Under the pieces are notes generated by a model. That model had not been told where the DNA came from, did no database searches, and saw only the letters and a program-made list of their open reading frames with translations. DNA of 64,000 nucleotides, taken from contig JALHFY010000001.1 in assembly GCA_022837635.1 (NCBI GenBank), forward strand, positions 234,202-298,201, read 5' to 3'. The position numbers and the translations under genes were made by a program. Positions 20,851-62,731 of this stretch are shown here, piece after piece; within the stretch, counting starts at the first letter, position 1, and each line of letters begins with the position of its first letter. The stretch is from Candidatus Shapirobacteria bacterium. Lineage in GTDB: Bacteria; Patescibacteriota; Microgenomatia; UBA12405.

Positions 20851-21311
20851 AGATGTAGGTCAATTTTATCATCTATTTTAAGTTGTAGTTCTTGGGCGCG
20901 GTGAGCATTAAGTTCAATGACATATTTGGAAGGACGGGAACCGGTATATCTTTTCAATTGAGAATCGGCAGTGTTGCTTTCGGGTTGAGCAGTGAAAATA
21001 TCGGAAATTTGCTGGTTTTGGTCAATAAAAATCATATCTAGAGGGATGAGAGTATCTTTCATCCAAAAACTTTGATGAGCTAAAAAAGGAAAGACGAAAA
21101 GCATGCCACAATTGGGGCATAATTGGTCTCGCTGACTTAAACCTTTAGCTAAAAGATAGGGAGTATCGGCAATTTCTAAGGTGAATTCTTGATTAGCAAT
21201 TGTTTGTTTAATAGTTTTTGGGGCGGTGGGACGGGCGAAATGACGATAGAGATAAGTAGATAAATAAATAAGTAGTAAAAACAGGATAATCAGGAAAAGA
21301 TTTTTTGGCAT
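20847..21311 (-). CDS. DUF192-family protein (secreted/membrane-anchored, unknown function)
   Basis: N-terminal TM, then GLSQRDQL....GMLFVFP......FWMKDTLIPLDMIFID.NQQI matching the DUF192/COG1430 signature. Confidence 0.5.
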   Translation of the reverse strand: MPKNLFLIILFLLLIYLSTYLYRHFARPTAPKTIKQTIANQEFTLEIADTPYLLAKGLSQRDQLCPNCGMLFVFPFLAHQSFWMKDTLIPLDMIFIDQNQQISDIFTAQPESNTADSQLKRYTGSRPSKYVIELNAHRAQELQLKIDDKIDLHL

Positions 21312-22474
21312 AGTTTCTCCCCTATTTTATTCCAAGTGTAGTGATTTTTGAGATAATTGGATGAGTAGATAAGTAGATCAGTAGAAAGATGTTGAGGCAG
21401 AAAGAGAATTTTTTGAGCCAAATCTTGGGGGTTGTCTTTTTGAAAAATCAAGCCAGCACGGGTGTTTTTAATAATTTCCATGGAGGCGGGAATATTGGCA
21501 GCGATAACCGGTTTACCTCGGGCCAGGGCTTCGATTAAAACTAAACCAAAACTTTCTTGAGTGGAAGGAGAAATGAGAACATCGGAGCGGTCAATTAAAG
21601 TCGACAAATAATGATCAGGAAAACTGGTGATGAGTTTAAGGCGTTTTTTGACAGAGCTAGGGAGGGAATTAATCAGTTTTTGAATTTCAGGAAAATAGAG
21701 AGTTTTTTGACCGGCGAGAGTTAGTTGGTAGTTTTCAGGTAAGCGGCAAAAAGCTTTGATGAGGGTAGAAATGCCTTTGTGAGCGGCAAAAGAACCGATA
21801 AAGAGAAGACGAGTAGATGAGTGTTGAGACAAATTAGTGGAGGGATTTTTTTTGATAAAAGAGCTGTCAACACCATTGCCCAGAAGGAGGAGTTTGGACT
21901 TGGGAATACGGAATTTTTTGTGAAAATAATCAGTTTCATGTTGAGTTAAAGTCCAAATAAAATCGGCTGATTTGAGAGTATTCTTCAGAAGAAGGGTATG
22001 AAAATCAGGATCGTTGGGATGAAAAGAGGCGTTGATTAGTACTTTAGGGCTGTAGTGCTTTAGAGTTTTAGAGAGAAAGCGGATTAGACGGGCGTAAGGA
22101 GTCATGAGAGTGGGGAGAGGCCCGGCGAGAATAAAATCAGGCTTAAAACGGAGACTAGAAACTAGAAACGAGAAACTAGATTTTGGGGAAAAAATAGGGC
22201 CTTTGGCCAAAGTTTTAAGGTTGGAGTAGAATCGGCCTAAGAATTTAAGAGGACGGTGAGTCCAGGTCACTACAGGCAGAGCCAAAACATTTTCTTGAAG
22301 ATGAGTAATTTTTTTATACTTTTTGGTAAAGTCGTCGGTAGAAGAGGCGTCGGTGGTGACAACCATGATCTCATGCCCTTGAGAACGGAGATATTCCCCC
22401 ATCTTAAAAATGACTTTGGAACCACCATCAACAGCCGGAGGGTAAATGTGAGTCAGTAGTAAAAATCTGGCCAT
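21290..22474 (-). CDS. Glycosyltransferase family 4
   Basis: C-terminal QESFGLVLIEALARGKPVIAANIPASMEII, 394 aa. First gene of the long minus-strand run (divergent from 22508+). Confidence 0.7.
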   Translation of the reverse strand: MARFLLLTHIYPPAVDGGSKVIFKMGEYLRSQGHEIMVVTTDASSTDDFTKKYKKITHLQENVLALPVVTWTHRPLKFLGRFYSNLKTLAKGPIFSPKSSFSFLVSSLRFKPDFILAGPLPTLMTPYARLIRFLSKTLKHYSPKVLINASFHPNDPDFHTLLLKNTLKSADFIWTLTQHETDYFHKKFRIPKSKLLLLGNGVDSSFIKKNPSTNLSQHSSTRLLFIGSFAAHKGISTLIKAFCRLPENYQLTLAGQKTLYFPEIQKLINSLPSSVKKRLKLITSFPDHYLSTLIDRSDVLISPSTQESFGLVLIEALARGKPVIAANIPASMEIIKNTRAGLIFQKDNPQDLAQKILFLPQHLSTDLLIYSSNYLKNHYTWNKIGEKLCQKIFS

Positions 22475-31322: not shown

Positions 31323-32136
31323 ATATGTAATTACTCCACCAAAGGGATTGGTAGATATTAATTTACCGGAGATTTGGCGTTATAAGGAATTACTATATAC
31401 TTTTACTTGGAGAGATATTAAAGTTCGCTATAAGCAAACAGTTTTAGGTATTGTCTGGGCAATATTTCAACCACTTTTTACTATGATTATTTTTACAGTT
31501 TTTTTTGGTAATTTAGCTAAAATTCCTTCAGATGGGGTTCCTTACCCAATTTTTGTTTATTCTGGCTTGTTGTTTTGGATATATTTTTCCAATTCTTTAA
31601 CAAATGCCAGTAATTGTATGGTGAATAATGAGGGAATAATTAAAAAAATTTATTTTCCGAGGTTATTATTGTCGATTAGTGCCATACTGACACCGGTTAT
31701 TGATTTTTGTTTTTCTTCTATAGTTTTTTTAGGGTTAATGATAGTTTTTAGGTTTGTACCTAATTTTTGGGGATTACTAATGGTGCCATTATTATTATTG
31801 ATTTCAATGGTGACTGCTTCTGGAATTGGCTTGTTTTTAACATCGGTAAATGTAAAATATCGAGATGTGCGTTATATTTTGCCGTTTTTTATTCAAATTT
31901 TAATGTTTATCACTCCAGTTATTTATCCTGTTAGTATAATTCCTGAGAACTATAAATGGTTGGCTTATTTTAATCCAATGACAGGTGTAATTAATTCAGC
32001 TAGGGTTTTGATTTTAGGTGGGGGAAATATTGATTGGGTGGGGATTTGTATTTCGATAATTGCGGCAATAATATATTTTATTTTAGGATTGATATATTTC
32101 AGAAAAACTGAAAGGTTTTTTGCGGATATCATTTAG
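31303..32136 (+). CDS. wzm: ABC-2 type polysaccharide/O-antigen export permease (Wzm/TagG-like)
   Basis: RYKQTVLGIVWAIFQPLFTMIIF ABC-2 signature, 6 TM, 277 aa. Confidence 0.8.
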   Translation: MRQRKNEYVITPPKGLVDINLPEIWRYKELLYTFTWRDIKVRYKQTVLGIVWAIFQPLFTMIIFTVFFGNLAKIPSDGVPYPIFVYSGLLFWIYFSNSLTNASNCMVNNEGIIKKIYFPRLLLSISAILTPVIDFCFSSIVFLGLMIVFRFVPNFWGLLMVPLLLLISMVTASGIGLFLTSVNVKYRDVRYILPFFIQILMFITPVIYPVSIIPENYKWLAYFNPMTGVINSARVLILGGGNIDWVGICISIIAAIIYFILGLIYFRKTERFFADII

Positions 32137-32141
32137 TTAAA

Positions 32142-33398
32142 ATGGCAAAACCAATAATAACAGTAGAAAATTTAAGTAAAAAATATGCTTTGGGTGAAAA
32201 GCAAAGTTTTTATACTTTACGCGATTCAATAAGTGGTTTTTTTGTTGGTAAAAAAAATAAAGAAGAGGAATTTTGGGCACTTAAAGATATTAATTTTGAA
32301 ATAAAACAAGGTGAATCAGTGGGAATAATTGGTCGAAATGGAGCGGGTAAAAGTACTTTACTAAAAATTTTATCACAAATTACTCCGCCTACTACGGGGA
32401 AAATTACAATGAGAGGTAGAGTTGCCTCTTTGTTGGAAGTGGGTACAGGTTTTCATCAAGAGTTGACAGGGAGAGAAAATATATTTTTGAATGGGGCAAT
32501 TTTGGGAATGTCGAGAGAAGAGGTAAAGAAGAAATTCGATGAAATTGTGGCGTTCTCTGAAATAGAGAAATTTTTAGATATGCCAGTAAAGCATTATTCT
32601 TCGGGAATGTATATGAGATTGGCTTTTGCAGTAGCGGCGCATTTAGAATCAGAGATTTTAATTGTAGATGAGGTATTGGCTGTAGGTGACGCTCAGTTTC
32701 AAAAAAAATGTTTGGGTAAAATGGATGAGGTAGCAAAGAAAGAAGGACGAACAGTTTTGTTTGTAAGTCATAATATGGGGGCTATAAAGAGCTTATGTTC
32801 TAGAAGTATGATTATTGAAAAAGGAAAAATAGAGCTAATTGGAGAGTCAGAGAAGGTTGTACGTCAGTATATAAATGAATCAAACAATTATTCAAAAAAT
32901 AATTCAATTCATTATGACAAGCTAGTATATATTGAAAATGTTGAAATTTTAAGTTCAGAGGGTTATCAGAAGTCTAGTTTTTTAACAACAGAAGATGTTC
33001 ATGTTAAAGTTAATTTTGTTGTTAAAGAGGCTCTGAAATTAGGAAATTATTGTGGGTTAATTATTTTGGATGAATTTCAAAATATATTGATAATGGCTTA
33101 TGATATTGACAGTAATAGTAAGTATTATAAATTTAGACCTCCTGGAAAATATGAGGTAACTTTTACTATAGGAAAAAATATTCTTAATGAACAGGTTGTG
33201 AATTTAAATGTAGTTTGTGGAATTCCTTTGAAATACAACAATAGTCCGTATAAAAATTTATATTTTGATTCTTGGACTGGAATTAGTTTCCGTTTATATA
33301 ACACTAATAGTTTTTCTAGGGATTATTTTGGAGGACAAAGATCTGGTGTTATGCTTTTAAAAATTAATAGTCAGGTTAAGTGTCGGAAAATCGAATAA
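32142..33398 (+). CDS. wzt: ABC transporter ATP-binding protein Wzt/TagH-like with C-terminal ~170 aa beta-rich extension (Wzt_C-type carbohydrate-binding domain candidate)
   Basis: Walker A GIIGRNGAGKSTLLKIL, signature YSSGMYMRLAFA, Walker B ILIVDEVLAVGD, H-loop VSHN. Residues ~245-418 form an extra domain absent from the second transporter ATPase at 46000-46821. Confidence 0.8.
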   Translation: MAKPIITVENLSKKYALGEKQSFYTLRDSISGFFVGKKNKEEEFWALKDINFEIKQGESVGIIGRNGAGKSTLLKILSQITPPTTGKITMRGRVASLLEVGTGFHQELTGRENIFLNGAILGMSREEVKKKFDEIVAFSEIEKFLDMPVKHYSSGMYMRLAFAVAAHLESEILIVDEVLAVGDAQFQKKCLGKMDEVAKKEGRTVLFVSHNMGAIKSLCSRSMIIEKGKIELIGESEKVVRQYINESNNYSKNNSIHYDKLVYIENVEILSSEGYQKSSFLTTEDVHVKVNFVVKEALKLGNYCGLIILDEFQNILIMAYDIDSNSKYYKFRPPGKYEVTFTIGKNILNEQVVNLNVVCGIPLKYNNSPYKNLYFDSWTGISFRLYNTNSFSRDYFGGQRSGVMLLKINSQVKCRKIE

Positions 33399-42263: not shown

Positions 42264-44018
42264 ATGAAGTTTAGGTTTATTTCTATAGAGGTTTTTATTT
42301 TAATTTTTATTGTTATTTTAGGTTTGTTTCAGGTATTTATCATTCCTCCATTTCAAAAACCAGATGAGGTCATTCATTTTAAGCGCAGTAGTGCAATCAT
42401 GGTAAATGGTAGATGCTTAAATCAAAGTCGATATATTAGTTTTCCAGACAAGGTAGATGCGTTGAAATTAGCTCATAAATTTGAGGAAAAATTTATGGTT
42501 GAAAATGTGTTTTATAAGGATGAAAACAAAGGGAAGGAAATATTTGCTTATGATAAAGATTGGAACAGTTATATCACCTATTTTCCTAGTTACTTAGGAA
42601 TATGGTTGGGTGGTTTAAGTGATTATCCAGCATGGGCATTCTATGAAGGGAGACTGGCAGGATTTTTATTTTTTATGATTTGTTTTGCTTTGGCTATAAA
42701 ATTGGCTGGGAAATATAAATGGTTTATATATGGATATGCAGTATTGCCAATGGTGTTACAGCAATCAACTATTGTAGGTTATGATGTAATGCTCTATAGC
42801 TTAGCACCGGTGATTTTTGGGTTGACAGTAAATTTACTTGAAAGAAAAAAAATGAATTGGAAAATGTTTATAGGACTGGCGGTATCGACTTTATTATATA
42901 TTTTGGTTAAACCTGGATATTATTTGATGGTATTGCTACCAATGGTTGTTTTATGGATGAAAACAAAGAAATATATTCTGAGAAAGCCGATAATAATGAT
43001 GATTATAGCTTTAGTAGCGGTGACGATTGGATTTTTCTTTGTTAAAAAAATGATGGTTTTTACTGATTACAATGGTGAAAAGTTAATTATTGGAAAATAT
43101 CAAATGGAAATACTCAAGCATGATCCAGGATATTTTTTAAGAGTCTTGAGGGATACTTGGGAGGCAAAGAGAGTGTTTTATATCGAAAGTAGTTTGGGTT
43201 ATTTTGGTTGGCTTGATTATAAATATGATTTATATGGATATTTATTAGTTTTTGGACTTTTTCTTTATCTGTCTACAAGGAGTTTTAAGCTTGTCAAAAA
43301 AAACACTTTAGACAAGTTAAGTATTATTTTAATTTTAGGAATAATTCTGGGAACTTATGTGCTAATTCATTTTATGTTTTGGTTATACTGGACAGAGGTA
43401 GGGTCGAGTGTAGTTGAGGGGGTGCAAGGAAGATACTTGTTGCCCTTAGTACTTTTTTTAGTTTGGTTAATTTTAGAAATTAAATTAAATTTAGGAAAGA
43501 ATACAGTCAAGATCTTATTTTTAAGTCTTTTATTGTTATTGGTTGGAATTGATACTTATGAAATAATCTATGAGCGTTATTATGATTTTTCAAAAAACAT
43601 TGTAAATGCCGATGAATTGGCAGAAGAAATACAGAATTTGAGAGATAACGAAGAACCTTTAGTAAAAATTGATTCTAGAGATAGAATGATTAAGTATTTT
43701 GATACGTCATGGGAGGATAAAATAATTGGGTTTCAAATTGTCATAGAGAAAGATGATGTTTTAATCCAAGTTCCTTATCGATATAAAATTATGGACGAAG
43801 ATGGTAAAAAAGTGTTTTTGTCGGGTTATCTAACTCAAAAGAAACTACAGGATAGTGGTGTTTATGAATCGACTTTTAATAAAGCTTTTAAGCCTAAAGG
43901 AAAAGTAATTGCGTTGTTGATTGAACCGGTGGTGATGAATGAAAGTGAAAAATATTTTAGTTATTTATCCTTATATGACGAAATTCAGGCGAGACTACTG
44001 TTTATGAAGCCTAATTAG
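42264..44018 (+). CDS. Polytopic membrane protein, putative GT-C-like glycosyltransferase (DUF2142-like)
   Basis: 584 aa. TM1 is followed directly by the acidic motif PPFQKPDEVIHFKRS, which sits where GT-C enzymes carry their DE/DD motif. About 10 TM helices, then a ~150 aa soluble C-terminal domain. Confidence 0.35.
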   Translation: MKFRFISIEVFILIFIVILGLFQVFIIPPFQKPDEVIHFKRSSAIMVNGRCLNQSRYISFPDKVDALKLAHKFEEKFMVENVFYKDENKGKEIFAYDKDWNSYITYFPSYLGIWLGGLSDYPAWAFYEGRLAGFLFFMICFALAIKLAGKYKWFIYGYAVLPMVLQQSTIVGYDVMLYSLAPVIFGLTVNLLERKKMNWKMFIGLAVSTLLYILVKPGYYLMVLLPMVVLWMKTKKYILRKPIIMMIIALVAVTIGFFFVKKMMVFTDYNGEKLIIGKYQMEILKHDPGYFLRVLRDTWEAKRVFYIESSLGYFGWLDYKYDLYGYLLVFGLFLYLSTRSFKLVKKNTLDKLSIILILGIILGTYVLIHFMFWLYWTEVGSSVVEGVQGRYLLPLVLFLVWLILEIKLNLGKNTVKILFLSLLLLLVGIDTYEIIYERYYDFSKNIVNADELAEEIQNLRDNEEPLVKIDSRDRMIKYFDTSWEDKIIGFQIVIEKDDVLIQVPYRYKIMDEDGKKVFLSGYLTQKKLQDSGVYESTFNKAFKPKGKVIALLIEPVVMNESEKYFSYLSLYDEIQARLLFMKPN

Positions 44019-45101: not shown

Positions 45102-46016
45102 TTGTTAAGATATGATAACAATAATATGATTAAGAGAATATATCTTGAAGATCATAATCAGGTATTGGAGGGTATTCGGAATAGTTTTGATGTTGTAGAT
45201 AATTGGATGGAGGCAGAAGCGGTGGTGGTATGGCAGGATATTCGAGGCGAGTTGGTTCAAACTGTAGCGAATGCTAACTTATTAGGAATACCAACAATAG
45301 TAATGCAACATGGTCTTCGAGCAAGTCGAGAATATTCTAGTGATTTTGGAAAAGTATTGTTAGCAAAAAAAATTATGGTCTGGGGACCAAAAGATAAAGA
45401 AAGAGTAATGAGTGGTGGAGTTGAGCCAGAGAGAATTGAAGTAACAGGAACAATAATTTTTGATTCACTAAAGACGGTTGAAACACATGAAGAAAAAAAT
45501 GTTTTATTTGTGCCTTTACATTGGGATAAAGAAATTAGAGAAAATTTTGAGGTGGCTGAGAAATTAGCTTTAATTAAAGGAATTAATGTTCGAACAAAAT
45601 TGATTGAAGGTCAAAGAAAGAATCATTATCAAAATGTAATTAGAAGTAATCGGGATAAAGTAGGACATCTGGAGATTATTAGTGAGATTTTAAGAACTAC
45701 TGATTTGGTAGTTAGTTTAAGTGAAAGTACTTTGGAATTTATGGCCTATTATTTAGATATACCTGTAATTACTGTGAATAATTGGAAACCAAAATATTTT
45801 TTGGATACTTATATTGAAAGTATTAATAAATACTTTAGTGGTGCGAACATAGAAACAAATTTAGATGATTTAGAAAAAACAATTTTTTGGGTATTGAATA
45901 ATAGACAGATCAAATCCAAAGAAAGGAAAAAAGCTTTGTACGAGGAGGCAGGGATTGGTTTTAGGAAAATGAATGCGAGAAAAAAGATAATTGAGGTAAT
46001 TAGAAACTTGGGTTAG
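45102..46016 (+). CDS. Hypothetical protein, possible GT-B-fold polysaccharide biosynthesis enzyme
   Basis: 304 aa. Called with a TTG start at 45102 (alternative ATG at 45123: MIKRIYLED...). No confident motif. Weak resemblance to surface-carbohydrate biosynthesis / glycerophosphotransferase-like GT-B proteins. Confidence 0.25.
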   Translation: MLRYDNNNMIKRIYLEDHNQVLEGIRNSFDVVDNWMEAEAVVVWQDIRGELVQTVANANLLGIPTIVMQHGLRASREYSSDFGKVLLAKKIMVWGPKDKERVMSGGVEPERIEVTGTIIFDSLKTVETHEEKNVLFVPLHWDKEIRENFEVAEKLALIKGINVRTKLIEGQRKNHYQNVIRSNRDKVGHLEIISEILRTTDLVVSLSESTLEFMAYYLDIPVITVNNWKPKYFLDTYIESINKYFSGANIETNLDDLEKTIFWVLNNRQIKSKERKKALYEEAGIGFRKMNARKKIIEVIRNLG

Positions 46017-46821
46017 TTTTTTCCTTGAGGTATTGTTGACAAATTTGAATAGGTGAACCATCAGCGATGAGTTTTGAGTGACTAATTAGAAGACAGCGAG
46101 AGCAGAATTTGATAACAGTATCAAGATCATGAGAGACGTAGAGAATAGTTACCCCATTCTTTTTGAATTCTTCCATTTTTTGGAAACATTTTTGTTGAAA
46201 ATTTGGGTCGCCAACAGCGAGAATTTCATCAATAATGAGAATATCGGGATGGGTATGAATGGCGACAGAAAAGCCAAGTCGCATGTACATACCTGAAGAA
46301 AAGAATTTAATTGGCTGATCAATAAATTCCTCTAATTCTGAAAATTTAACAATACTATTAAAATTGTTTTCTATTTCTTTTTGGCTTAGGCCAAGAATGG
46401 CACCGTTTAGGAAGATATTTTCTCGAGCGGTGAGCTCAGGGTGAAAACCAGCACCTAATTCAATTAAAGGAGAGATGCGGCCATTAACATAAACCTTTCC
46501 CTTAGTGGGAGCAGTAACTCCAGCAATAAGTTTTAGAATAGTTGATTTACCACTACCATTTGGACCGATAATCCCGAGAGTTTCCCCACTCTTAACCTTA
46601 AAAGAAATGTTGTCGAGAGCAATGAAATTATTTTTTGTTTGTTCGCCAAGAAAGAGAGCTGGTAAAAATTCCTTAAATGTTTTTTGTTTTTGAAGAGAAA
46701 ATTTTTTGGTTAAATTAGTGAATTTAATGACGGTGTTATTCATATTAAACAATGTCGGCAAAGGTGTTTTCACGCTGCTTAAAATATAGCAAGCCGACAG
46801 ATAAGGTAATAAAAGAAACAA
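46000..46821 (-). CDS. ABC transporter ATP-binding protein (Wzt/TagH-like, no C-terminal extension)
   Basis: Walker A GIIGPNGSGKSTILKLIAG, signature FSSGMYMRLGFSVA, Walker B ILIIDEILAVGD. 273 aa. Confidence 0.8.
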   Translation of the reverse strand: MFLLLPYLSACYILSSVKTPLPTLFNMNNTVIKFTNLTKKFSLQKQKTFKEFLPALFLGEQTKNNFIALDNISFKVKSGETLGIIGPNGSGKSTILKLIAGVTAPTKGKVYVNGRISPLIELGAGFHPELTARENIFLNGAILGLSQKEIENNFNSIVKFSELEEFIDQPIKFFSSGMYMRLGFSVAIHTHPDILIIDEILAVGDPNFQQKCFQKMEEFKKNGVTILYVSHDLDTVIKFCSRCLLISHSKLIADGSPIQICQQYLKEKTNPSF

Positions 46822-47545
46822 TTAGGGCGATAAATAGACTGAATAAATCAGGTGATTTTCCCCCGAGAACTGTTTGCCGATAAGCGTTAACAAAGACACT
46901 CATAGGGTTAAGTTGAAAAATAAATTTAAAGCGATTAGGGACAATATCGGCAGGATAGACAATAGGGGTGATATAGAACCAGAGAGAGATAATCAATGCG
47001 AGTAAGTATTGGATATCTCTATAAATTAGGTTGGCGGCAGCAAAAAATAGAGAAAGACCTAGAGTAAATATTAACTGAGTTAATAGAATGGGAATTACCC
47101 AGAGTAGATTTAAGGTAATTGGAATTTTAAAAAAAATGAAGAATATAATTAAGACTGTTAAAGCAAAAGCAAAATCAATTAATTTGGCGATAATGGTGGA
47201 GATAACAAGAATTGAGCGAGGAAAATATATTTTACGAATTAGTGGTGCGGAATTTACAAGTGACATAGCTGATGAAGTGACTGAAGTAGAAAAGAGGTTC
47301 CAAGGTAGAAGGGCAGTATATAGAAATAAGGTATAAGGGATATGTGAAGCAGAATTAGTGGGAATACGAAGAATAACAGAAAAAGCAAAAGACATAACGA
47401 GCATTTGAGCTAGTGGATTTAATATTACCCAAAAATAACCGAGGATTGATTGCTTGTATCGGGCTTTAATTTCTCGACTGGTCATTTGCCATAAAAGTTC
47501 CCGCCATTTGATGACGCTTTGAAATTCTTGAACTATGGCTAACAT
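46745..47545 (-). CDS. ABC-2 type polysaccharide export permease (Wzm/TagG-like), second copy
   Basis: RYKQSILGYFWVILNPLAQMLVMSFAF ABC-2 signature, 6 TM. Overlaps its cognate ATPase gene. Confidence 0.8.
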   Translation of the reverse strand: MLAIVQEFQSVIKWRELLWQMTSREIKARYKQSILGYFWVILNPLAQMLVMSFAFSVILRIPTNSASHIPYTLFLYTALLPWNLFSTSVTSSAMSLVNSAPLIRKIYFPRSILVISTIIAKLIDFAFALTVLIIFFIFFKIPITLNLLWVIPILLTQLIFTLGLSLFFAAANLIYRDIQYLLALIISLWFYITPIVYPADIVPNRFKFIFQLNPMSVFVNAYRQTVLGGKSPDLFSLFIALIVSFITLSVGLLYFKQRENTFADIV

Positions 47546-47579
47546 GAGTTAGTTTAGCAAATTAAAAAGATAGTTTATA

Positions 47580-48599
47580 ATGGTAGGAATGAACAAGAAA
47601 GAGCTGATTTGTACGATAGGTGGCGGAACTGGAATGCCGGTAGTTAACGAAGCTTTAGTCAAGGCAGGTTATGAAAATATCTGGTCAATAGTAACTACCT
47701 TTGATAATGGCGGTGATACCGGCAGAATGAGGACAGATGAGCGGGGACAAACCTTGGCTAATTCTGATTATTGGCGATCATTAATCTCTTTGTGGGATGA
47801 TGGAACTCAAAAAAAAGTTTGGGTAGAGATGCTTAAATATCGTGATGGTAGAGACAGGAATTTTGGTAACACTTTTTTTCAGTTTATGACGGAAAAAACC
47901 GGTTCATTGGATAAGGTTGATGATTTATTTAAGTCGTTAACAATGGCTGATTTACATGGTCATGTTATCCCCTCCTCTCTGTTTTCAGCCAATATGTCTT
48001 TTGAAACAAACAATGGCAAGGTCTATCATGGTGAAAAATTTTTAGACCAGCTGAGAATGTCTTCTGATGTGGTGAAAAAATTATGGTTGGAACCTAAGGT
48101 TAAGGTTAATCCTGAAGCAGTCAAAGCGTTAAAAAGGGCTAAAATGATTATTGTTTGTCCAGGCAGTATTTTTGGATCATTGATGGCTAATTTTTTAGTC
48201 GATGGATTCAAGGAAGCTTTTAATCAAAGTCGAGCTAAAAAGATTTTAATGGTAAATTTGATGTCACAAGCCAATGAAGGTAATTTTGCCAATCAGTTGG
48301 AATATGAAGAATTGTTTAAGAAACATGTGGGAGTAAAATTTGACAGGATTTTAATGGCCGATTTAACTTGTCTTAATTCAAAGAAATTAGACAAATTACG
48401 TAAATTTTATGAGTTAGAGCATTCTAGAGAGGTAGAGTATGTGGAAGATGAAAGAACATTTTTAGAGGATTTGGCAACAATTGATGAAAAAAATTGGAGA
48501 TTGCGTCATAGTACTCAAAAATTAGCCCGTTTTTTTGCTAGAATGAGCTATGTCTCAAAAGAGATTAAGAAAGATAAAAAAAGAAAAAATAGAAACTAG
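47580..48599 (+). CDS. YvcK/CofD (UPF0052) family protein: gluconeogenesis-factor / 2-phospho-L-lactate-transferase-like
   Basis: IGGGTGMPVV......TTFDNGGDTGRMR, ..HGHVIPSS.., GEKFL, IVCPGSIFGSLMANFLV, LMVNLMSQANEG match the conserved blocks of the CofD/YvcK fold. Lys/Arg-rich C-terminal tail. Confidence 0.5.
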   Translation: MVGMNKKELICTIGGGTGMPVVNEALVKAGYENIWSIVTTFDNGGDTGRMRTDERGQTLANSDYWRSLISLWDDGTQKKVWVEMLKYRDGRDRNFGNTFFQFMTEKTGSLDKVDDLFKSLTMADLHGHVIPSSLFSANMSFETNNGKVYHGEKFLDQLRMSSDVVKKLWLEPKVKVNPEAVKALKRAKMIIVCPGSIFGSLMANFLVDGFKEAFNQSRAKKILMVNLMSQANEGNFANQLEYEELFKKHVGVKFDRILMADLTCLNSKKLDKLRKFYELEHSREVEYVEDERTFLEDLATIDEKNWRLRHSTQKLARFFARMSYVSKEIKKDKKRKNRN

Positions 48600-50280
48600 A
48601 AACAAGAAACCAGATACTAGAATATTGTTGCCGGGGGTGGTGGAGATTATTAGGAATAATTGGGTGTTTTTACTATTGACCTGTTTGGTGAGTTTGGTGT
48701 TGTATGCTAATGCCCTCAATGGTGCCTTTGTGTCTGATGATTATGCGACGGTACCCAACAATCCTTTGATTGGTGATTTTTGGGCAACGATGAAATCTTT
48801 CCCAGGAAACAGTATGGCCTTGAGTAATTATATTGTGTTTAAGTTTTTTGGTCACAGTAGCCCGGTACCTTATCATATTACTTCCTTATTGATATATATG
48901 TTGGTTTTAGTTTTGGCCTTGGTATTTATGGAGATAGTTTTTAAGAATAGATTACTAAGTCGGACAGCTGTTTTGATATTTGCTTTTCATCCAATTCATG
49001 TGGAGGCGGTCTCTTGGAATGCTGGGAGGATTTATTTAATTTTATCGGCTTATATGTTGTTATCGGTGATTAATTTAATTTATTTTCTAGACAGGGATAA
49101 GCCAAAATATTTGCTTTATGGAATGTTGTTTTTCTTGTTGGCTTTATTGACTGATCGGCCTCGCCCTTTTGCAATATTTTTAATTATTATCTTGTATTTA
49201 ACTTCACAACAAAACTGGGATATTTTGAAAAAATACAAAAAATATTATTGGTTAGTATTAGTCAGTTTACTGATTTCAGTTTTAATCAGTTTGCCATTGA
49301 TTAATAGTAGAATCGGGGCGGTAAATAGCGGCATTAATGCTTCTGGAAGTATTTTTTATAATCCAATTTTGCAATATCCGGTTTCGGTAACTAAATATTT
49401 ACAGTTGTTATGGGCACCTTTGAATTTAACTTTGTATCACACAATGTATGTTTTACCGACTTGGTTAAATTGGTTGATTACTTTGAATTATTTGGCTTTA
49501 TTGGTTTATTTTTACATTAAAGATAAAAGATATTTTTTCGCCTTGGCTTTTATTTTTGTAGCTACAGCTCCGTCGATGGCACCAATAAAGGTTAGTTGGT
49601 TGGTAGCGGAAAGATATATGTTTTTAGGTAGTCTGGGTTTTTGTTTGTTTTCGGCTTTGATATTAACTGATCTATGGAAAAAATCGAAGTTTTTAAGTTC
49701 TTTATTATTGATTTTATTGTTGGCTTTTTATGGCTGGCGAGTTTACCAAAGAAATATAGACTGGAGTACAAATCATAATTTATGGGTTAATACTTGTCAG
49801 GTGTCACCAAATAGTCACAATGCTTGGAATAATATTGGTGATGATTACGATAAATTGGGTCAGTTAGAAAATGCTATTAAAGGTTTTACTCAATCGGTTT
49901 TAACAAGACCAAATTATGCTGATGCTTATCATAATCGGGGTAATATATTTTATAAGATGAAAAGATTAGATTTAGCCAAAGAGTCTTATGAAACTGCAGT
50001 AAGGATTAATCCTAATTTATATCAAACTTATTTGGCTTTGGCTCAAATTGCTTTTGAGAGTCGAAATCCAAAATTAGCAAAGGAAAACTTGGAGAAATAC
50101 ATACGTTTTGATCAAAGTAATATTCAGGCTTATTATAGTTATGCTTTGGCTCAGGCTCAGTTGGGAGAAATAGAAGAAGCCAAGAAATTGTTAAAGGAGA
50201 TTTTAACAGTTTATCCAAATTTGGTACCGGTCAAAGAGTCTTTGAAGGTATTGGAGAACGGAATCAGTTTGACTAATTAA
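48550..50280 (+). CDS. Polytopic membrane protein with C-terminal TPR repeats (TMTC/PMT-like GT-C candidate)
   Basis: 576 aa. About 11 TM helices with an acidic SDDYATVP motif in the first loop. C-terminal ~170 aa contain at least 4 TPR-like repeats (AWNNIGDDYDKLGQLENAIKGF...ADAYHNRGNIFYKMKRLDLAKESYETAVRINP...YLALAQIAF..). The first 50 nt overlap the upstream gene. Confidence 0.5.
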   Translation: MSQKRLRKIKKEKIETRNKKPDTRILLPGVVEIIRNNWVFLLLTCLVSLVLYANALNGAFVSDDYATVPNNPLIGDFWATMKSFPGNSMALSNYIVFKFFGHSSPVPYHITSLLIYMLVLVLALVFMEIVFKNRLLSRTAVLIFAFHPIHVEAVSWNAGRIYLILSAYMLLSVINLIYFLDRDKPKYLLYGMLFFLLALLTDRPRPFAIFLIIILYLTSQQNWDILKKYKKYYWLVLVSLLISVLISLPLINSRIGAVNSGINASGSIFYNPILQYPVSVTKYLQLLWAPLNLTLYHTMYVLPTWLNWLITLNYLALLVYFYIKDKRYFFALAFIFVATAPSMAPIKVSWLVAERYMFLGSLGFCLFSALILTDLWKKSKFLSSLLLILLLAFYGWRVYQRNIDWSTNHNLWVNTCQVSPNSHNAWNNIGDDYDKLGQLENAIKGFTQSVLTRPNYADAYHNRGNIFYKMKRLDLAKESYETAVRINPNLYQTYLALAQIAFESRNPKLAKENLEKYIRFDQSNIQAYYSYALAQAQLGEIEEAKKLLKEILTVYPNLVPVKESLKVLENGISLTN

Positions 50281-58836: not shown

Positions 58837-59587
58837 AAACTTTTATGTAAGCAATAGGAAAACGAAGTGATGAATACCAGGCGAAAACGAAACCAGGAAA
58901 GCCATCCATAAAGCCCTTATGTCGAAAATAAGCCAAAAAGAACCAGGCTAAGGGTTTAAAAATAAAGTAAACAATGAAAGAAAAGAAACCGGTTTTTAGA
59001 CCCGCCTTTTTAAGATCAGAAGCTAAAAGTGAGGTGTAGCGATCGTTTCTTAAAAGATAGCGGGAAAAATTAGGGTCGGCATAGTGGAGGAGATCATGGT
59101 TGAGGGTGGAGACTGGACCGGTAACAACGGCTTGCTCATGAACATCTTTACAGGGAAGCCTGCCCATACCGCGACGATAAAGACGAATGGTGGGGTCAGG
59201 GTAGACACCGCCTTTTTTGAGAAAACGGCCTAAAAAGTAGTTTTGACGTTTAATCCAAAAACCATGGTATTCAGTTTTAGGAATGGTTTGTAAAATTTCT
59301 TTTTGAAGCTCTGGGCTAATAATTTCATCAGCATCAAGCTGTAAAATCCAGTCACTTTTACAAGCATCAATAGCCATCTGTTTATTAAGATGAAACATGG
59401 CTTTGTTGGTGGTAGAAATCAACCTGACTTTGGGATATTTTTTAACTATCTGAGTAGTCTTGTCCGAAGATTGACCGTCGACGATGACAATTTCATCGAC
59501 CCAGGATTTGACGGCGTTCAGGCATTTGGCAATATTTTTCTCTTCATTATAAGTGGCAATGGCGACAGAAAGAGTGGTTTTTTTCAT
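58811..59587 (-). CDS. GT2 polyprenyl-phosphate sugar synthase-like with C-terminal TM helices (GtrB/DPM1-type)
   Basis: LSVAIATYNEEKNIAKCLNAVKSWVDEIVIVDGQSSDKT...LQLDADE. C-terminus FFSFIVYFIFKPLAWFFLAYF (two TM helices) as in GtrB-type enzymes. Immediately upstream of the GT-C triplet. Confidence 0.75.
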   Translation of the reverse strand: MKKTTLSVAIATYNEEKNIAKCLNAVKSWVDEIVIVDGQSSDKTTQIVKKYPKVRLISTTNKAMFHLNKQMAIDACKSDWILQLDADEIISPELQKEILQTIPKTEYHGFWIKRQNYFLGRFLKKGGVYPDPTIRLYRRGMGRLPCKDVHEQAVVTGPVSTLNHDLLHYADPNFSRYLLRNDRYTSLLASDLKKAGLKTGFFSFIVYFIFKPLAWFFLAYFRHKGFMDGFPGFVFAWYSSLRFPIAYIKVFEMEHEKI

Positions 59588-61140
59588 TTGACTGAGTATA
59601 TTTTAAAGCTTTGACCGCTTTTTTCAAAATTATCGGCATCAATTACTAGAGAATTACTAGGAATGTGTTCAGGGATTTGGAAGTGAATATTGTCAATTTG
59701 AAGAACAGTAGAGAAACCAAAATGGTCGGGAGGAGTGGGATTAATTTTACTTTGAATTTCTGCCGGTGGATATAAACTGTAAAAGAGGTAGAGGATATAA
59801 GGTTGGTCGTACTTATTGGTCATATAAATATTTTGATAATTATGTTTTTCGGTCTCAATTAGAGGAATAATTTCTTTGAATCCCCTATTCCAGGCAAAGG
59901 AATAACGTTGAGGTGAATGAATAAAATAAGCGTCTAGAAAATAGAGACTAAAGATGAGATATAAAAAGATGAGGAGATAAGTAGATAAGTAGGGAGTAAG
60001 TTGATAAAGGCCATAGGCGGTGAAAAAAGATAGAGGCACAACCATGGATAAAGCTCGAAGAGCAGACGGTGCCTGGAAGGTCAGTGAAGAAGCCAGAGGG
60101 GAAATAAGTAGATAAGCAATGAAAAATATTTTTAGATTTAATTTGATTTTTTTAGAATGAATAAAGGAATAGAGACCATATAAAAGTAATGGCAATTCAA
60201 TTAAATGCATTTGTCCCATTTCCGGAGAAGCGGAGCGAGGGACGGCATCACCATCGATAAAAAGGAAATTAAGATCAAAATGAGACAGATATTTTTGAAC
60301 AAAAGAGAGTAAATATTGTGTTCTTTGATTATGAATAATTTTTTGAAAATAATTGATCTGACTATGGTGATGAAGAAGTTCTTTGGAACGGGAAACAGGT
60401 CCGGTATCAGCAAATAAACCGACACCACCAAAACGGGTAGTACCACCACTATTGAGGAAAGAATAAACCACAGGTACCGATAAAAGTAGAGCCATGATAA
60501 TAGAAATAATTAGAGGAGTAGATAAGCAATGGAGTAGTTTTTTAAGGTTGAGGAGAAATAAAGTGAGAACAATGAGAGGAGCGATAAGACGAGCTGAATG
60601 GTAAACATAAAGAGAGGCGATAAAGGGTAAAGGGAAAAGGAAAAGATATTTTGATTTGGGTTTGTCTAAAAAACGATAGAAAAAATAAATTCCCAAGAGA
60701 ATAAAAAAAACTGAGGTGGCACTTTCCCAGGCACCACGGGAAAAATGAATGTGCCAAGGAGACAGAGCCAATACCAGAGAACTATAGAGCGCTAGAGTTT
60801 CAGATTTAAATAAGAGAAAAACTAATTTATAAAGAATATAGACGGTTAAAACTGAGAGGACGAGATTGGGAAGACGAACAGCCAGGGGAGTGAGTCCTAA
60901 AACTTTAATAAAAGGTAGAGCTAAATAAACATAACCACCGGGTTTATAGTCACTAAAAGACTTAAAATGGAGAGGCCAAGAAATTCCGTGTTCATCACGA
61001 CCGGTCTGAATTAAAGAATAGGCATTGTAGCCCAGGGCGGCCTCATCAGGATTGAGAGAGGGTACAGAGTTAATATTCCAAAAACGAAGCAGGGTGGCAA
61101 TGACAAGAATGATAATTAATTTAGTCTTGGTGGTAAGCAT
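59584..61140 (-). CDS. GT-C family membrane glycosyltransferase (PMT/ArnT-like, polyprenyl-phosphate-sugar dependent), paralog 1
   Basis: 518 aa, ≥10 TM. First-loop motif VPSLNPDEAALGYNAYSLIQTGRDEHG (the DE motif of GT39/GT83-type GT-C enzymes). SPWHIHFSRGAWES block shared with the two upstream paralogs. Confidence 0.65.
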   Translation of the reverse strand: MLTTKTKLIIILVIATLLRFWNINSVPSLNPDEAALGYNAYSLIQTGRDEHGISWPLHFKSFSDYKPGGYVYLALPFIKVLGLTPLAVRLPNLVLSVLTVYILYKLVFLLFKSETLALYSSLVLALSPWHIHFSRGAWESATSVFFILLGIYFFYRFLDKPKSKYLFLFPLPFIASLYVYHSARLIAPLIVLTLFLLNLKKLLHCLSTPLIISIIMALLLSVPVVYSFLNSGGTTRFGGVGLFADTGPVSRSKELLHHHSQINYFQKIIHNQRTQYLLSFVQKYLSHFDLNFLFIDGDAVPRSASPEMGQMHLIELPLLLYGLYSFIHSKKIKLNLKIFFIAYLLISPLASSLTFQAPSALRALSMVVPLSFFTAYGLYQLTPYLSTYLLIFLYLIFSLYFLDAYFIHSPQRYSFAWNRGFKEIIPLIETEKHNYQNIYMTNKYDQPYILYLFYSLYPPAEIQSKINPTPPDHFGFSTVLQIDNIHFQIPEHIPSNSLVIDADNFEKSGQSFKIYSVK

Positions 61141-62731
61141 AGAAGGTAGAAATAGTATTAACCGGACTTAAGGGAATGAATTGACTAAATTCGGGACGTG
61201 ATTCCAGACCTTGACGGTAAACTTCTTCTTGAGCAAAAATACCTAAGACTCCGGGATTTTCTCGGATAAAATCGAAGTGAGCCGTTCGGAAATTAAGATT
61301 ATCAACCTGTTTGACTATTCCGGTATCGCCGTGAATATTGTCGGTAAGATGAGATTGTTGTTGATAAAGTTTGGGGGGATATTTGGAGAAGAAGAGATAA
61401 TAGATATAAGGTTGACCATAATAATCAGTAAAATAAATTTGACTGTCTTTATATTTTTCTCGATTGGCGATGACATATTTAATTGCCTCTTGGTAGCCAT
61501 AGAGTAATTGGTCGGGATCTTTTTGAATCATGTGATGATAATAAAGATCTTGATAGTAGAAAAAAGAAAGGAGATAAGATAAGCCGACAAGTAGATAAAT
61601 AGATTTTTTATGGATTTTGGAGAGACCAAGGGAGGTAAAGTAGATTAGTGGGATGGACATGGACATGGTGCGAACAGCGGTGATGGTGTCTCGAGTAAGG
61701 GCGCCGGGAATGGGGGCAAACAAAAGCCATAATAAGAAAAAGAGAGAAGTGGAAGAATAATTGAGCAGACCGATAATAAGAAAGATAAAAGAAGGATAGA
61801 GAATTACCCCGATATATGGGGCAGAATGACGGAGATTTTGCCAATCACCTTCAAAGAGTAAAAAGCGAGTGGAAAAGTGATTAAAATAACGAGAGAGAAA
61901 ATTTCTGAGAAAAAAGATAGGTTGACTATGGAAAAGTTGATAGTCCAAGTGACTGGATTCTTTAATGATTAAATCAGTTTCCTCCTGTGAGCGGGGGTAA
62001 GAACTGAGAGACAACACTTTCAGTCGGTTGCTGTCAGCAGAAAAGAGAAGACCGTAGGCGACAGGTAAAGCCAGGAGAAAAAGTGGGAGAATAAATTTTA
62101 AGGCAATGCTTTTGAAATTAGTTTTGAGGTGAGTGAATTGAGAAATAAAGAGGCTCAGAATAATTGAAGGAGTGATTAATTTTCCAGCTTGATAACTGTA
62201 GAGACTGAGAGCAAAAACTAAGGCAGAAGGTAAATAACGTTTTTTAATAAAGAAAAGAGAAGCGAGGAGTAATTCGAAAGTCAGGAGATTAGTTTCCCAG
62301 CCACCCCGAGAAAAATGAAGATTCCAGGGGTTAAAAGCGAGTAAGAGAGCGGCTAAAAGAGCCTGTTTTTCGGACTTGGGAGAAAGAGCTTTAATTAAAA
62401 AATATAAAAGGAGGGGCGATAAAGAACCGACAATAATGGAAGGTAGGCGGACAGCCAAGGGATTGAGACCAAAGAGAGCCACAAAAGGAACAGTTAGATA
62501 AATATAAATTCCCGGTTTATAGTCACCAAAAGATTTGAAAATTAGGGGTAAAAAAACGCCGTGTTCATCACGACCGGTTTTCAAAATAGAGTAAGCATTG
62601 TAGCCGATAGCAGCTTCATCCCAGAGAAGAGGTGGATAAGAAGTAGCCCGATAGACTCTAAAAACAAAGGCGATAAGAGTGAGAATGATTAAAAATAAAA
62701 GATGTTTTTTATTCATGAGTGACGATATCAA
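61121..62731 (-). CDS. GT-C family membrane glycosyltransferase (PMT/ArnT-like), paralog 2
   Basis: 536 aa. YPPLLWDEAAIGYNAYSILKTGRDEHGVFLPLIFKSFGDYKPG is near-collinear with paralog 1 (LNPDEAALGYNAYSLIQTGRDEHGISWPLHFKSFSDYKPG). Overlaps paralog 1 by 20 nt. Confidence 0.65.
   Translation of the reverse strand: MISSLMNKKHLLFLIILTLIAFVFRVYRATSYPPLLWDEAAIGYNAYSILKTGRDEHGVFLPLIFKSFGDYKPGIYIYLTVPFVALFGLNPLAVRLPSIIVGSLSPLLLYFLIKALSPKSEKQALLAALLLAFNPWNLHFSRGGWETNLLTFELLLASLFFIKKRYLPSALVFALSLYSYQAGKLITPSIILSLFISQFTHLKTNFKSIALKFILPLFLLALPVAYGLLFSADSNRLKVLSLSSYPRSQEETDLIIKESSHLDYQLFHSQPIFFLRNFLSRYFNHFSTRFLLFEGDWQNLRHSAPYIGVILYPSFIFLIIGLLNYSSTSLFFLLWLLFAPIPGALTRDTITAVRTMSMSIPLIYFTSLGLSKIHKKSIYLLVGLSYLLSFFYYQDLYYHHMIQKDPDQLLYGYQEAIKYVIANREKYKDSQIYFTDYYGQPYIYYLFFSKYPPKLYQQQSHLTDNIHGDTGIVKQVDNLNFRTAHFDFIRENPGVLGIFAQEEVYRQGLESRPEFSQFIPLSPVNTISTFYAYHQD

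Follow-up and report, generated by a model that had tools for sequence, protein, structure and literature searches.

The gene at positions 47580 to 48599 (forward strand) of the window, as we call the whole 64-kb stretch of DNA analyzed here, encodes what by sequence and fold is an ordinary, divergent YvcK/GlmR-type protein predicted to bind sugar nucleotides. Across Shapirobacteria it forms a conserved pair with a downstream gene for a GT-C-fold membrane glycosyltransferase carrying TPRs (TPR-GT-C), which is a new result. The Lys-rich tail of the YvcK-like protein is unconserved and modeled at low confidence; it arises where translation runs on, in another frame, through the A-rich, K/R-coding start of the GT-C gene. 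No sign of a phase-variation switch was found at the junction of the two genes. On balance we favor the view that the gene is the Shapirobacteria orthologue of YvcK/GlmR, probably captured into an envelope-glycan locus, with the overlap, the tail and the repeat as by-products.

The YvcK-like protein belongs to the YvcK/GlmR branch of the CofD superfamily, as judged from its open reading frame, Pfam, NCBIfam, an AF2 model and Foldseek. Its 339 residues comprise a core to about residue 323 (ending FFARM) and a variable K/R-rich tail (residues 324-339); translation may instead start at ATG 47589, giving 336 aa, and the equivalent of M4 is the start in most homologues. The sequence-only reading had placed the protein in the YvcK/CofD family and this assignment stands, as PF01933 (CofD) matched residues 10-287 with E 3.3e-41 and 141.8 bits against a cut-off of 30. 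TIGR01826 (YvcK) aligned over nearly its full length (residues 10-321 against model positions 1-307 of 310) with 152.1 bits, which is under the curated NCBIfam cut-off of 196 and thus marks a divergent member of the YvcK branch. A profile of the family searched against PDB retrieved YvcK-type entries only (2ppv, 2hzb and 2o2z, E 4e-34 to 4e-27), with CofD/FbiA absent at E < 0.01. The AF2 model (pLDDT 82.7, falling below 50 in the K/R-rich tail) matched the same three YvcK structures in Foldseek with E 1e-23 to 1e-24 and TM 0.77-0.85, whereas CofD/FbiA (3c3d, 6uvx) gave E ~1e-10, TM 0.53-0.63 and 10-15% identity, indicating a fold closer to YvcK. CofD/FbiA, the 2-phospho-L-lactate transferase of coenzyme F420 synthesis, shares the PF01933 superfamily and a Rossmann-like architecture with the protein, but no CofD-proper (equivalog) model matched in the NCBIfam scan and no F420 genes were found in the 64-kb window, so that the earlier dismissal of an F420 role was well placed. 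The CofD-like family of the GAK system (TIGR04357) was also considered and rejected (41 bits against a cut-off of 340).

GlmR/YvcK proteins (UPF0052, TIGR01826) are known from B. subtilis, L. monocytogenes and S. aureus, and as CuvA in mycobacteria. The window protein shares their fold, a full-length alignment with ~25% identity and an association with cell-envelope biosynthesis genes, but lies in a tight, separate subfamily. Within it we found one full-length representative at 50% identity and a few fragments, after which scores fell from 442 to 196 bits, and it carries the private invariant motifs RTDERG, SDYWR and YRDGR.RNFGN. Given these motifs and the sub-cut-off TIGR01826 score, ligand or activity may differ from those of Firmicute GlmR. 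A literature search on CPR/Patescibacteria together with YvcK/CofD returned nothing relevant.

The UDP-GlcNAc site is formed by T13/N217/Y264/R300 in B. halodurans and T14/N218/Y265/R301 in B. subtilis (PMC5482804). The B. halodurans residues, which contact UDP-sugar or NAD, align to T17, N226, Y277 and R309 of the window protein; all UDP-sugar-binding residues, the conservation of which the sequence-only reading had proposed to check, are therefore kept. The putative uridyltransferase residues D40/D41/N198 of L. monocytogenes (PMC10128056) align to D42, N43 and N204. Across 24 family members D42, N204, N226, Y277 and R309 are invariant, while the T17 position is T or S in 23 and A in one, and position 43 is N or S, the staphylococcal YvcK 2ppv likewise having DN. 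The equivalent of the PrkC phosphosite (T304) is T in the window protein but, in a departure from GlmR/YvcK, is not conserved within its subfamily. From the conserved GlmR residues we infer that the protein binds UDP-sugars, an activity that stays a prediction for this subfamily.

Glycan genes surround the YvcK-like gene from ~7.3 kb to 64 kb of the window. The embedding in a glycan locus noted earlier is real and conserved across Shapirobacteria, and orthologues are thus not confined to non-glycan loci. Divergently oriented, 34 bp from the YvcK-like start, lies an ABC-2 (Wzm-type) permease gene (46745 to 47545, reverse strand; PF01061), followed by that of its partner, a Wzt-type ABC transporter ATPase (46000 to 46821, reverse strand; PF00005) that is conserved in relatives. 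Of 57 loci, 20 show the divergent Wzm gene as a direct neighbor of the YvcK-like gene, and 18 more have it farther upstream. The 34-bp intergenic region holds a sigma-70-like promoter match on the forward strand (47554 to 47581; TTAGCA-16 nt-TATAAT, 10/12, a consensus match only), which overlaps ATG 47580, with the predicted transcript start near ATG 47589. In non-F420 bacteria yvcJ/rapZ has been reported to be always linked to yvcK (PMC7525490). Here neither yvcJ/rapZ nor whiA was found among window ORFs of at least 120 aa scanned with Pfam (all of them except two methyltransferase-like ORFs), nor rapZ/yvcJ among the Pfam-annotated neighbors of 9 related loci; unlike in GlmR/YvcK loci, the adjacent genes are instead those for the TPR-GT-C and the Wzm/Wzt exporter.

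Among 56 Shapirobacteria loci the TPR-GT-C gene was adjacent to the YvcK-like gene in 38, with gaps of -71 to +177 nt and 12 overlaps, and was separated from it by inserted genes in 7. The remaining 11 (~20%) had no GT-C within 6 kb, although their YvcK-like proteins are of this one subfamily and keep its invariant residues; such loci are of housekeeping type, for example with pyruvate kinase as the neighbor or with ruvC and ruvA on either side. On an NJ tree, paired loci turn up in most subclades. In a sister subfamily from Amesbacteria, Collierbacteria and Woesebacteria the neighbors of the gene are ddl with secE-nusG, nusG, or Sua5. As a rule there is one YvcK-like locus per GTDB genome, making it a fixed core gene in single copy, in contrast to the flanking glycosyltransferases, which vary between the loci of relatives.

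The partner gene (48550 to 50280, forward strand) encodes 576 aa, a multi-pass membrane domain followed by a C-terminal TPR domain. Its ATG at 48550 was validated by the N-terminus MSQK[KR]L, which over 50 related loci share, even where the genes do not overlap. The N-terminus is cytoplasmic and K/R-rich (11 K/R among the first 30 residues), with a first transmembrane helix at about residues 38-57 and, right after it in the first extracytoplasmic loop, the motif FVSDDY (F60 V61 S62 D63 D64 Y65), invariant in 22 sequences. The description of this neighbor as a TPR-GT-C held in that the TPRs were detected by Pfam and the GT-C fold by fold search, but GT-C was undetectable by sequence in the window protein, whose membrane domain matched nothing significantly by sequence in Pfam or PDB and, even with E up to 5, no curated GT-C family such as PMT or PMT_2; PF13231 (PMT_2) was recorded for several GT-C homologues of 48-53% identity. 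In its acidic pair D63-D64, invariant within the first extracytoplasmic loop, the protein resembles protein O-mannosyltransferases and TMTC enzymes, and eukaryotic TMTC proteins likewise carry their TPRs on the C-terminal side of the membrane domain. The likeness is limited in that the window membrane domain lacks a significant match and only some relatives reach PMT_2, and we know of no PMT or TMTC enzyme with a YvcK-like upstream partner.

The two ORFs overlap by exactly 50 nt (48550 to 48599, forward strand), as had been noted, since the YvcK-like ORF ends at 48599 and the next ATG stands at 48550. This dual-coding stretch is 62% A and 22% GC. Translated in the frame of the GT-C gene it gives MSQKRLRKIKKEKIETR, in that of the YvcK-like gene (Y)VSKEIKKDKKRKNRN*, so that the YvcK-like protein ends in the K/R-rich KEIKKDKKRKNRN. 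The first 27 nt of the overlap are invariant in three lineages apart from a single A/G substitution at base 15 of the GT-C ORF, silent for the GT-C protein and an I/V exchange in the YvcK-like frame. All family members share the core end FF.[KR]M, followed by one of two tail types, YV[ST]KE or DLC.KK, which result from reading the conserved start ATGTCNCARAAR in one or the other of its two alternative frames. Together with a pLDDT below 50, this speaks against the tail as a functional feature. In the scenario we favor, the YvcK-like stop codon would have shifted into the coding sequence of its neighbor, which would account for the 50-nt overlap. The A-rich GT-C start, coding for a K/R-rich cytoplasmic N-terminus (positive-inside), would yield K, R and N in the other frame until a chance TAG or TAA, leaving a disordered Lys-rich tail of lineage-variable length that would itself be unselected. 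As in known overlapping, translationally coupled pairs with overprinted termini, the genes lie on the same strand with the downstream start within the upstream ORF, and the upstream C-terminus is unconserved with a composition set by the other frame; the 50-nt length is unlike the commonest overlaps in relatives, of 19-20 nt, and usual bacterial overlaps are shorter still (1-4 nt). The predicted fold of 48490-48640 did not surpass those of shuffled sequences (z = +0.83), arguing against an RNA structure or riboswitch at the junction, and Rfam and tRNA searches of the window returned no matches.

A repeat in the overlap had been read as a slippage-prone hexamer AGAAAC. The string quoted for it, tagaaactagaaacaagaaaccag, is present at 48590-48613 and the tail is indeed K/R-rich, but the unit is the 7-nt NAGAAAC, in a degenerate array (48590 to 48624, forward strand) of TAGAAAC, TAGAAAC, AAGAAAC, CAGATAC and TAGAATA, in which just the first two units match each other exactly. 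Unit 2 opens with the TAG that ends the YvcK-like gene, and the array occupies cytoplasmic-linker codons 14-25 of the GT-C gene. TRF reported period 7, 5.3 copies, 80% matches and a score of 46, which falls under the usual threshold of 50; period-7 arrays scoring at least 46 appeared in 0 of 30 dinucleotide shuffles of the window, so the array exceeds this null, and the word TAGAAAC is not enriched in the window (9 against 11.7 expected). The most slippage-prone bases of the junction are the A7 (48576-48582) and A6 (48584-48589) runs of the overlap (48576 to 48589, forward strand). In silico, loss of one A or one heptamer produced a single fused ORF of 897-899 aa, and gain of one heptamer truncated the GT-C at 18 aa.

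We consider very improbable the resulting proposal that the junction is phase-variable, with slippage on the heptamers or the A7/A6 runs turning GT-C off by insertion or fusing the ORFs by a 7-nt or 1-nt deletion. The proposal draws on the unit length of 7, not divisible by three, inside both ORFs; on the in silico fusion and truncation; on the cytoplasmic location of the GT-C N-terminus, with which the topology of a fusion would be compatible; on the non-randomness of the array; and on the recurrence of heptamer periodicity in three lineages at a hotspot of sequence turnover. The junction resembles simple-sequence contingency loci, such as the 7-bp repeats upstream of H. influenzae hmw or the tetranucleotide repeats in lic genes, in that a tandem unit that is not a multiple of three lies within the coding sequence of a surface-glycan gene. 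However, such loci typically have at least 6 units or homopolymers of at least 8-9 bases, well above the two perfect units and the A7 present here. The junction was also identical in the window and five further assemblies (L013-L017), consensus sequences that represent one clone of a single strain (100% identity over 2.7-7 kb), and identical again across six assemblies of a second strain (L003-L008), so that repeat copy number, which had been suggested as the check across strains, is invariant in six plus six consensus assemblies. Between lineages the differences were point changes (the TAG stop of the window is CAG in L003) or a 40-nt replacement, and none in unit number; L003 and L009 show the heptamer periodicity with unit sequences of their own, and L001 has lost it. 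A search of metagenomes for length variants, with conserved flanks around a variable gap, returned no matches at all; a second one, with the invariant 23-mer as probe, picked up two JGI contigs, which carry the L001-type allele. Cluster members of 329-339 aa likewise differ through start-codon call or allele replacement, not unit number. The sole natural fusion candidate, P0274 (416 aa, CofD C-terminus straight into GT-C), is a singleton on ENA contig_6658; all neighboring genes there are broken into 47-99-aa pieces, pointing to an indel-ridden assembly, and it was rejected. The heptamer periodicity would instead be a property of the GT-C linker, evolving via substitution and block replacement and not as a switch.

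In Firmicutes, YvcK/GlmR promotes envelope UDP-GlcNAc supply via GlmS activation and/or as an accessory GlcNAc-1-P uridyltransferase. The uridyltransferase role of GlmR in vivo is disputed (bioRxiv 10.64898/2026.06.23.733835). By the capture model, a cytoplasmic, Rossmann-like, predicted UDP-sugar-binding protein would have entered the glycan locus divergently from the Wzm/Wzt exporter and directly upstream of a TPR-bearing, PMT-like GT-C. The two genes are probably co-transcribed, no terminator being predicted between them, and translationally coupled, so that sugar-nucleotide supply or sensing would be expressed along with glycan assembly; this physiological role is likewise a probable one. 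The sequence-only reading had suggested a different function, a phosphotransferase that moves phospho-lactate or a phospho-sugar onto the glycan of the island, which we hold to be quite unlikely. CofD-superfamily membership, a location in a 55-kb glycan island among tailoring genes such as those for methyltransferases and radical SAM enzymes, and the deposition of the YvcK-type PDB 2q7x as a 'putative phospho transferase' would fit it, but sequence and fold are nearer YvcK than CofD and the GlmR UDP-sugar and uridyltransferase residues are kept. Moreover, orthologues occupy housekeeping loci in about a fifth of Shapirobacteria and in sister phyla, so a dedicated decorating enzyme is not indicated, and the gene is fixed while tailoring enzymes normally vary between strains.

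The 68% adjacency and recurrent overlaps are tighter than expected of a merely co-located housekeeping gene and could reflect a specific partnership, in which the YvcK-like protein and the TPR-GT-C cooperate through contact or through metabolism. The former could dock onto the cytoplasmic N-terminus (MSQKKLKK) of the latter, supplying or gating the sugar donor, or CofD-like chemistry (NDP-X + acceptor -> acceptor-P-X + NMP) could make the lipid-phosphate-linked donor of the GT-C, given that the CofD/FbiA fold can catalyze phospho-transfer from a nucleotide-activated donor. The 12 overlaps suggest translational coupling and a fixed stoichiometry, the pairing recurs in most subclades with a GT-C N-terminal peptide that is conserved without overlap, the subfamily stands sharply apart from other YvcK proteins through its private motifs, and no rapZ partner lies in the window. 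By contrast, the same subfamily with its invariant residues lacks a nearby GT-C in 11 loci and is separated from it in 7 more, the sister subfamily of other Microgenomates occupies housekeeping loci, and no genuine fusion protein was found. The locus also already has small GT2 enzymes of a kind that normally makes polyprenyl-phosphate sugars. We therefore find a dedicated partnership doubtful, and its stricter version, a cytoplasmic subunit or donor-supplying partner of the PMT-like TPR-GT-C held at a fixed ratio by translational coupling, somewhat more so. On this stricter reading, one slip in an A-tract or heptamer would be sufficient to join the YvcK-like protein and the GT-C into a single polypeptide. 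If true, it would be the first functional link from YvcK/GlmR to lipid-linked extracytoplasmic glycosylation and could indicate the chemistry of the YvcK fold outside Firmicutes.

YvcK/GlmR is widespread and important for Gram-positive envelope integrity and virulence, with a biochemical role debated between GlmS activator and accessory uridyltransferase. That a reduced-genome CPR lineage keeps a divergent copy with all key residues, in a rapZ-less neighborhood and tightly paired with a GT-C, provides an independent genomic clue that the core role of the family may be to handle sugar nucleotides for envelope glycans. A further lesson is that a spurious 'Lys-rich tail' and repeat, not to be read as functional, can arise where a gene overlaps the A-rich, K/R-coding start of its neighbor; beyond these two points the finding is ordinary.

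The YvcK-like gene, a CofD-superfamily ORF on the plus strand at 47580-48599 (339 aa), is separated by 34 bp from a divergent Wzm-type permease gene (46745-47545, minus strand), and the next same-strand ORF, encoding the membrane glycosyltransferase TPR-GT-C, starts at ATG 48550 and overlaps it by 50 nt. The window is AT-rich (34.6% GC). Its left end encodes cell-wall and housekeeping functions (Mur ligase, PBP transpeptidase, RsmH/MraW, class II tRNA synthetase and RecO), and from about 7.3 kb onward glycan genes fill the remaining stretch of about 55 kb. This stretch contains many GT1/GT4 and GT2 enzymes, methyltransferases, sugar-nucleotide enzymes, one radical SAM protein, one Wzy_C-like protein (15235-16617), two ABC-2/ABC exporters and several GT-C-like membrane proteins. 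Neither tRNAs nor Rfam matches were found in the 64-kb window. Five large membrane proteins that are GT-C-like or related (28651-30285, 42264-44018, 48550-50280, 59584-61140 and 61121-62731) comprise a weak PMT_2 match, a DUF2142 protein, TPR-GT-C and two PMT/PMT_2 proteins. Together with the Wzy_C-like protein and two distinct ABC-2 exporters (31303-33398 and 46000-47545), this set commits an unusually high proportion of a small CPR genome to surface glycans. A 304-aa ORF (45102-46016, plus strand) flanked by a GT2 gene and by the Wzt ATPase gene, whose end it overlaps by 17 nt on the opposite strand, gave no significant Pfam match and a weak Epimerase_2 similarity (E 0.018).

The YvcK-like protein matched CofD in Pfam (PF01933, E 3.3e-41), and its best NCBIfam model, TIGR01826 (UDP-GlcNAc-binding protein YvcK), aligned end to end with a score of 152 bits, below the cut-off of 196. 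No CofD-proper model was reported for it in NCBIfam, and the GAK CofD-like model there scored far under threshold. PDB sequence searches with the single protein and with a 24-member family profile (best profile E 4e-34) returned solely five YvcK-type structural-genomics entries (2ppv, 2hzb/2o2z, 2q7x and 2p0y). With the family alignment as input, AlphaFold produced a model (mean pLDDT 82.7) that gave TM scores of 0.77-0.85 against 2o2z, 2hzb and 2ppv but just 0.53-0.63 against CofD/FbiA, at 10-15% identity. Judged by these Pfam, NCBIfam, PDB-sequence and structural matches, the protein falls in the YvcK/GlmR branch, with no support for an F420 role, so that both the YvcK/CofD assignment and the dismissal of F420 in the sequence-only reading were borne out. 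Relatives already carry the public annotation 'YvcK family protein' in one source.

Foulquier and Galinier showed T13, N217, Y264 and R300 of the B. halodurans protein to contact the dinucleotide, with T14, N218, Y265 and R301 as the B. subtilis equivalents, and UDP-GlcNAc binding in B. subtilis was abolished by Y265A and R301A (PMC5482804; PMC7525490). Uridyltransferase activity of L. monocytogenes GlmR was impaired by D40A/D41A/N198A (Pensinger et al., PMC10128056). Counting along the profile-to-2hzb alignment placed the UDP-sugar contacts at T17, N226, Y277 and R309 of the YvcK-like protein and the uridyltransferase positions at D42, N43 and N204. D42, N204, N226, Y277 and R309 were invariant across the 24-sequence alignment, position 17 was T or S in every member but one, and position 43 was N or S, as it likewise is in the staphylococcal homologue. 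Because the equivalent residues are invariant or nearly so, the UDP-sugar site is conserved, giving a positive answer to the earlier question of whether the binding residues of YvcK are kept. The equivalent of PrkC phosphosite T304, T312, is unconserved across the subfamily.

Homologues at 55-92% identity belong to Candidatus Shapirobacteria and unnamed Patescibacteria. When 1.84 billion cluster representatives were scanned exhaustively with HMMER (1228 proteins at E <= 1e-10), one tight subfamily was recovered, consisting of one full-length representative at 442 bits and a few fragments, after which the score falls to 196 bits (about 36% identity), while GTDB species genomes yielded 73 loci, generally one per genome. 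Synteny was scored by tblastn with the window's own proteins at loci with a flank of at least 1.5 kb (56 downstream, 57 upstream). TPR-GT-C lies immediately 3' of the YvcK-like gene in 38 of the 56 loci, with gaps of -71 to +177 nt, and the two genes overlap in 12 of these 38, most often by 19 or 20 nt; at 7 further loci of the 56 GT-C follows 0.7-4.8 kb downstream behind inserted genes, and no downstream GT-C was found at 11. The divergent Wzm gene adjoins upstream in 20/57, is more distant in 18/57 and is absent in 19/57. At one related locus, L012 (9018-9995 and 7837-8181), a Fic/RhuM-domain gene lies directly upstream of the YvcK-like gene, with further small genes, one of them DUF5674, between it and wzm; the divergent promoter region thus tolerates insertions. 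In an NJ tree the pairing occurs in most subclades and the unpaired loci are grouped in two or three. Unpaired examples are upstream of pyruvate kinase (L085, and L075 judged by ORF length), between ruvC and ruvA (L068) or surrounded by further glycan genes (L070).

Members of the nearest sister subfamily, from Amesbacteria, Collierbacteria and Woesebacteria, occupy housekeeping loci beside D-Ala-D-Ala ligase and secE-nusG-rplK, near nusG, or beside Sua5. An invariable linkage of rapZ to yvcK has been described for Firmicutes and the remaining non-F420 bacteria (PMC7525490); yvcJ/rapZ was absent from all related loci with Pfam-annotated called genes. The YvcK-like protein would work as a YvcK/GlmR family member and is a divergent one, sharing the family's fold and key residues but falling below the curated score cut-off and lacking the rapZ linkage. 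Among relatives the flanking glycosyltransferases vary while the YvcK-like gene and its two neighbours stay constant. In our reading the gene is the clade's core YvcK orthologue, pulled into an envelope-glycan locus in Shapirobacteria, and not a strain-variable tailoring enzyme. The conserved YvcK-like/TPR-GT-C pair and the absent rapZ linkage in a CPR clade are undescribed as far as literature searches show, a useful but modest observation.

The GT-C neighbour (48550-50280, plus strand, 576 aa) carries C-terminal TPRs, and for its 420-residue membrane domain neither Pfam nor PDB sequences gave a match. Among homologues, some have PMT_2 and one bears the name protein O-mannosyltransferase. F60-V-S-D-D-Y65, right behind the first transmembrane helix, is invariant, in keeping with the acidic motif that GT-C enzymes have in loop 1. 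The label TPR-GT-C proved right. The GT-C N-terminus MSQK[KR][LI][KR]K is conserved in >50 loci, with M1, S2 and Q3 nearly invariant, also where up to 177 nt or entire genes lie between the two genes, so ATG 48550 is the true start. A start at a GTG further downstream, used in one NCBI record, would fall inside the first transmembrane helix. A segment ahead of a transmembrane helix is seldom so conserved, and this cytoplasmic peptide (48550-48580) may serve for docking or as a translation-initiation context.

In every family member the YvcK-like core closes with ..FF.[KR]M, and in most the stop follows 1-3 codons on. Where tails are present they are of two kinds, ..YV[ST]KE.. and ..DLC.KK.., which match exactly the conserved ATGTCNCARAAR gene start read in its two alternative frames, so the tail is overprinted on the GT-C start. 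Since A-rich codons there specify a cytoplasmic segment rich in K/R (11 K/R in 30 residues; A content of the overlap 62%), a shifted frame again gives K, R and N up to a stop that arises by chance. Within the window's own clade 2 to 16 residues follow SKE[IV]K before the stop: K K K in L001, R K in L009, ..DKKRKNRN in the window and ..NKKRKSRNQGPETRN in L003, a second strain in which the window's TAG stop is CAG. Across the first 27 bases of the overlap a single substitution occurs, which is silent in GT-C and I/V in the other frame. Given this variable length, the GT-C-synonymous substitution and a tail pLDDT <50 in the AlphaFold model, we conclude that the Lys-rich tail is not a selected feature. 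Neither a stable RNA structure at the junction nor a terminator between the two genes was found. At the other end of the gene, a promoter-like match (TTAGCA-16-TATAAT, 47554-47589 region) ends at 47581, over the first ATG, and the second ATG (47589, MNKKEL..), the start in most homologues, would sit at about the transcript 5' end, suggesting a leaderless mRNA and a 336-aa protein from ATG 47589.

The sequence-only reading had regarded the repeat at the overlap as slippage-prone and the C-terminus of one gene or the N-terminus of the other as possibly phase-variable. The array (TAGAAAC TAGAAAC AAGAAAC CAGATAC TAGAATA, 48590-48624; TRF period 7, 80% matches, score 46) is weak but non-random: no period-7 array with that score arose in 30 dinucleotide shuffles, and overall, arrays scoring 46 or better numbered 8 in the real window versus 1.6 per shuffle. 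A slip would have consequences, since in silico the gain of one heptamer truncates GT-C at 18 aa and the loss of one heptamer, or of one A of the A7 run, yields a single fused ORF of 897-899 aa. Yet the expected slippage rate is low for an array that has two perfect units and for an A7 run, and comparing copy number across assemblies and lineages revealed no unit-number difference. Five further assemblies, each from another run, have an allele identical to the window's; they represent the same clone, as they are 100% identical over 2.7-7 kb. The L003 allele is identical in six assemblies. Member lengths of 329, 332, 336 and 339 aa in the 90% cluster come from start-codon choice and two allele types. 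The junction region does show fast sequence turnover: heptamer periodicity with different units occupies the same place in L003 and L009, and a GC-rich segment of about 40 nt replaces the run in L001, L091 and L092. The observations thus show no sign of slippage, and a phase switch at the junction is highly improbable.

The sole database 'fusion', an in-frame CofD-GT-C protein (P0274, ENA ERZ1286166 contig_6658, 3001-4251, locus L093), was discounted because neighbouring genes on the 276-kb contig are all split into 47-99-aa fragments; it is almost certainly a homopolymer indel error of long-read assembly. The GC-rich segment, CTGGAGAGACCCGCCTCCGTCAA[C/T]TCCGGCGTGG (L001:10998-11040, about window 48590-48612) in a genome of about 35% GC, encodes LERPASVNSGV within the GT-C linker and belongs to the closest sister allele, whose CofD-like protein is 92% identical. 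The array TAGAAACTAGAAAC[G/A]AGAAAC[T/C]AGAT occurs twice in the window, at 48590-48615 and at 22154-22181 inside a minus-strand GT4 ORF (21290..22474); the copies share 24/26 bases with unrelated flanks and are the only two period-7 arrays with a TRF score >= 46 in the window, none arising in 30 shuffles. For the word TAGAAAC there is no enrichment in the window (9 found, 11.7 expected).

We favor, with some reserve, the explanation that the YvcK-like protein is a GlmR-type UDP-sugar-binding protein, possibly nucleotidyl-transferring, that is co-expressed and probably translationally coupled with GT-C; such coupling would tie sugar-nucleotide handling to envelope glycan assembly, with overlap, tail and repeat as by-products. 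A specific partnership between the two proteins would account for a pairing that is tight and recurrent and for the conserved GT-C N-terminus, but unpaired orthologues exist, and we consider it unlikely. The glycan-decorating phosphotransferase envisaged from the sequence is less probable still.

Many GTDB records with the Shapirobacteria-type locus (L018, L019, L023, L025-L030 and others) are titled 'uncultured Gammaproteobacteria bacterium', and single records 'Candidatus Methanoperedens sp.', 'Bacteroidales', 'Chloroflexota' or 'Anaerolineae'; these discordant titles are probably placeholder names or mis-binned contigs.
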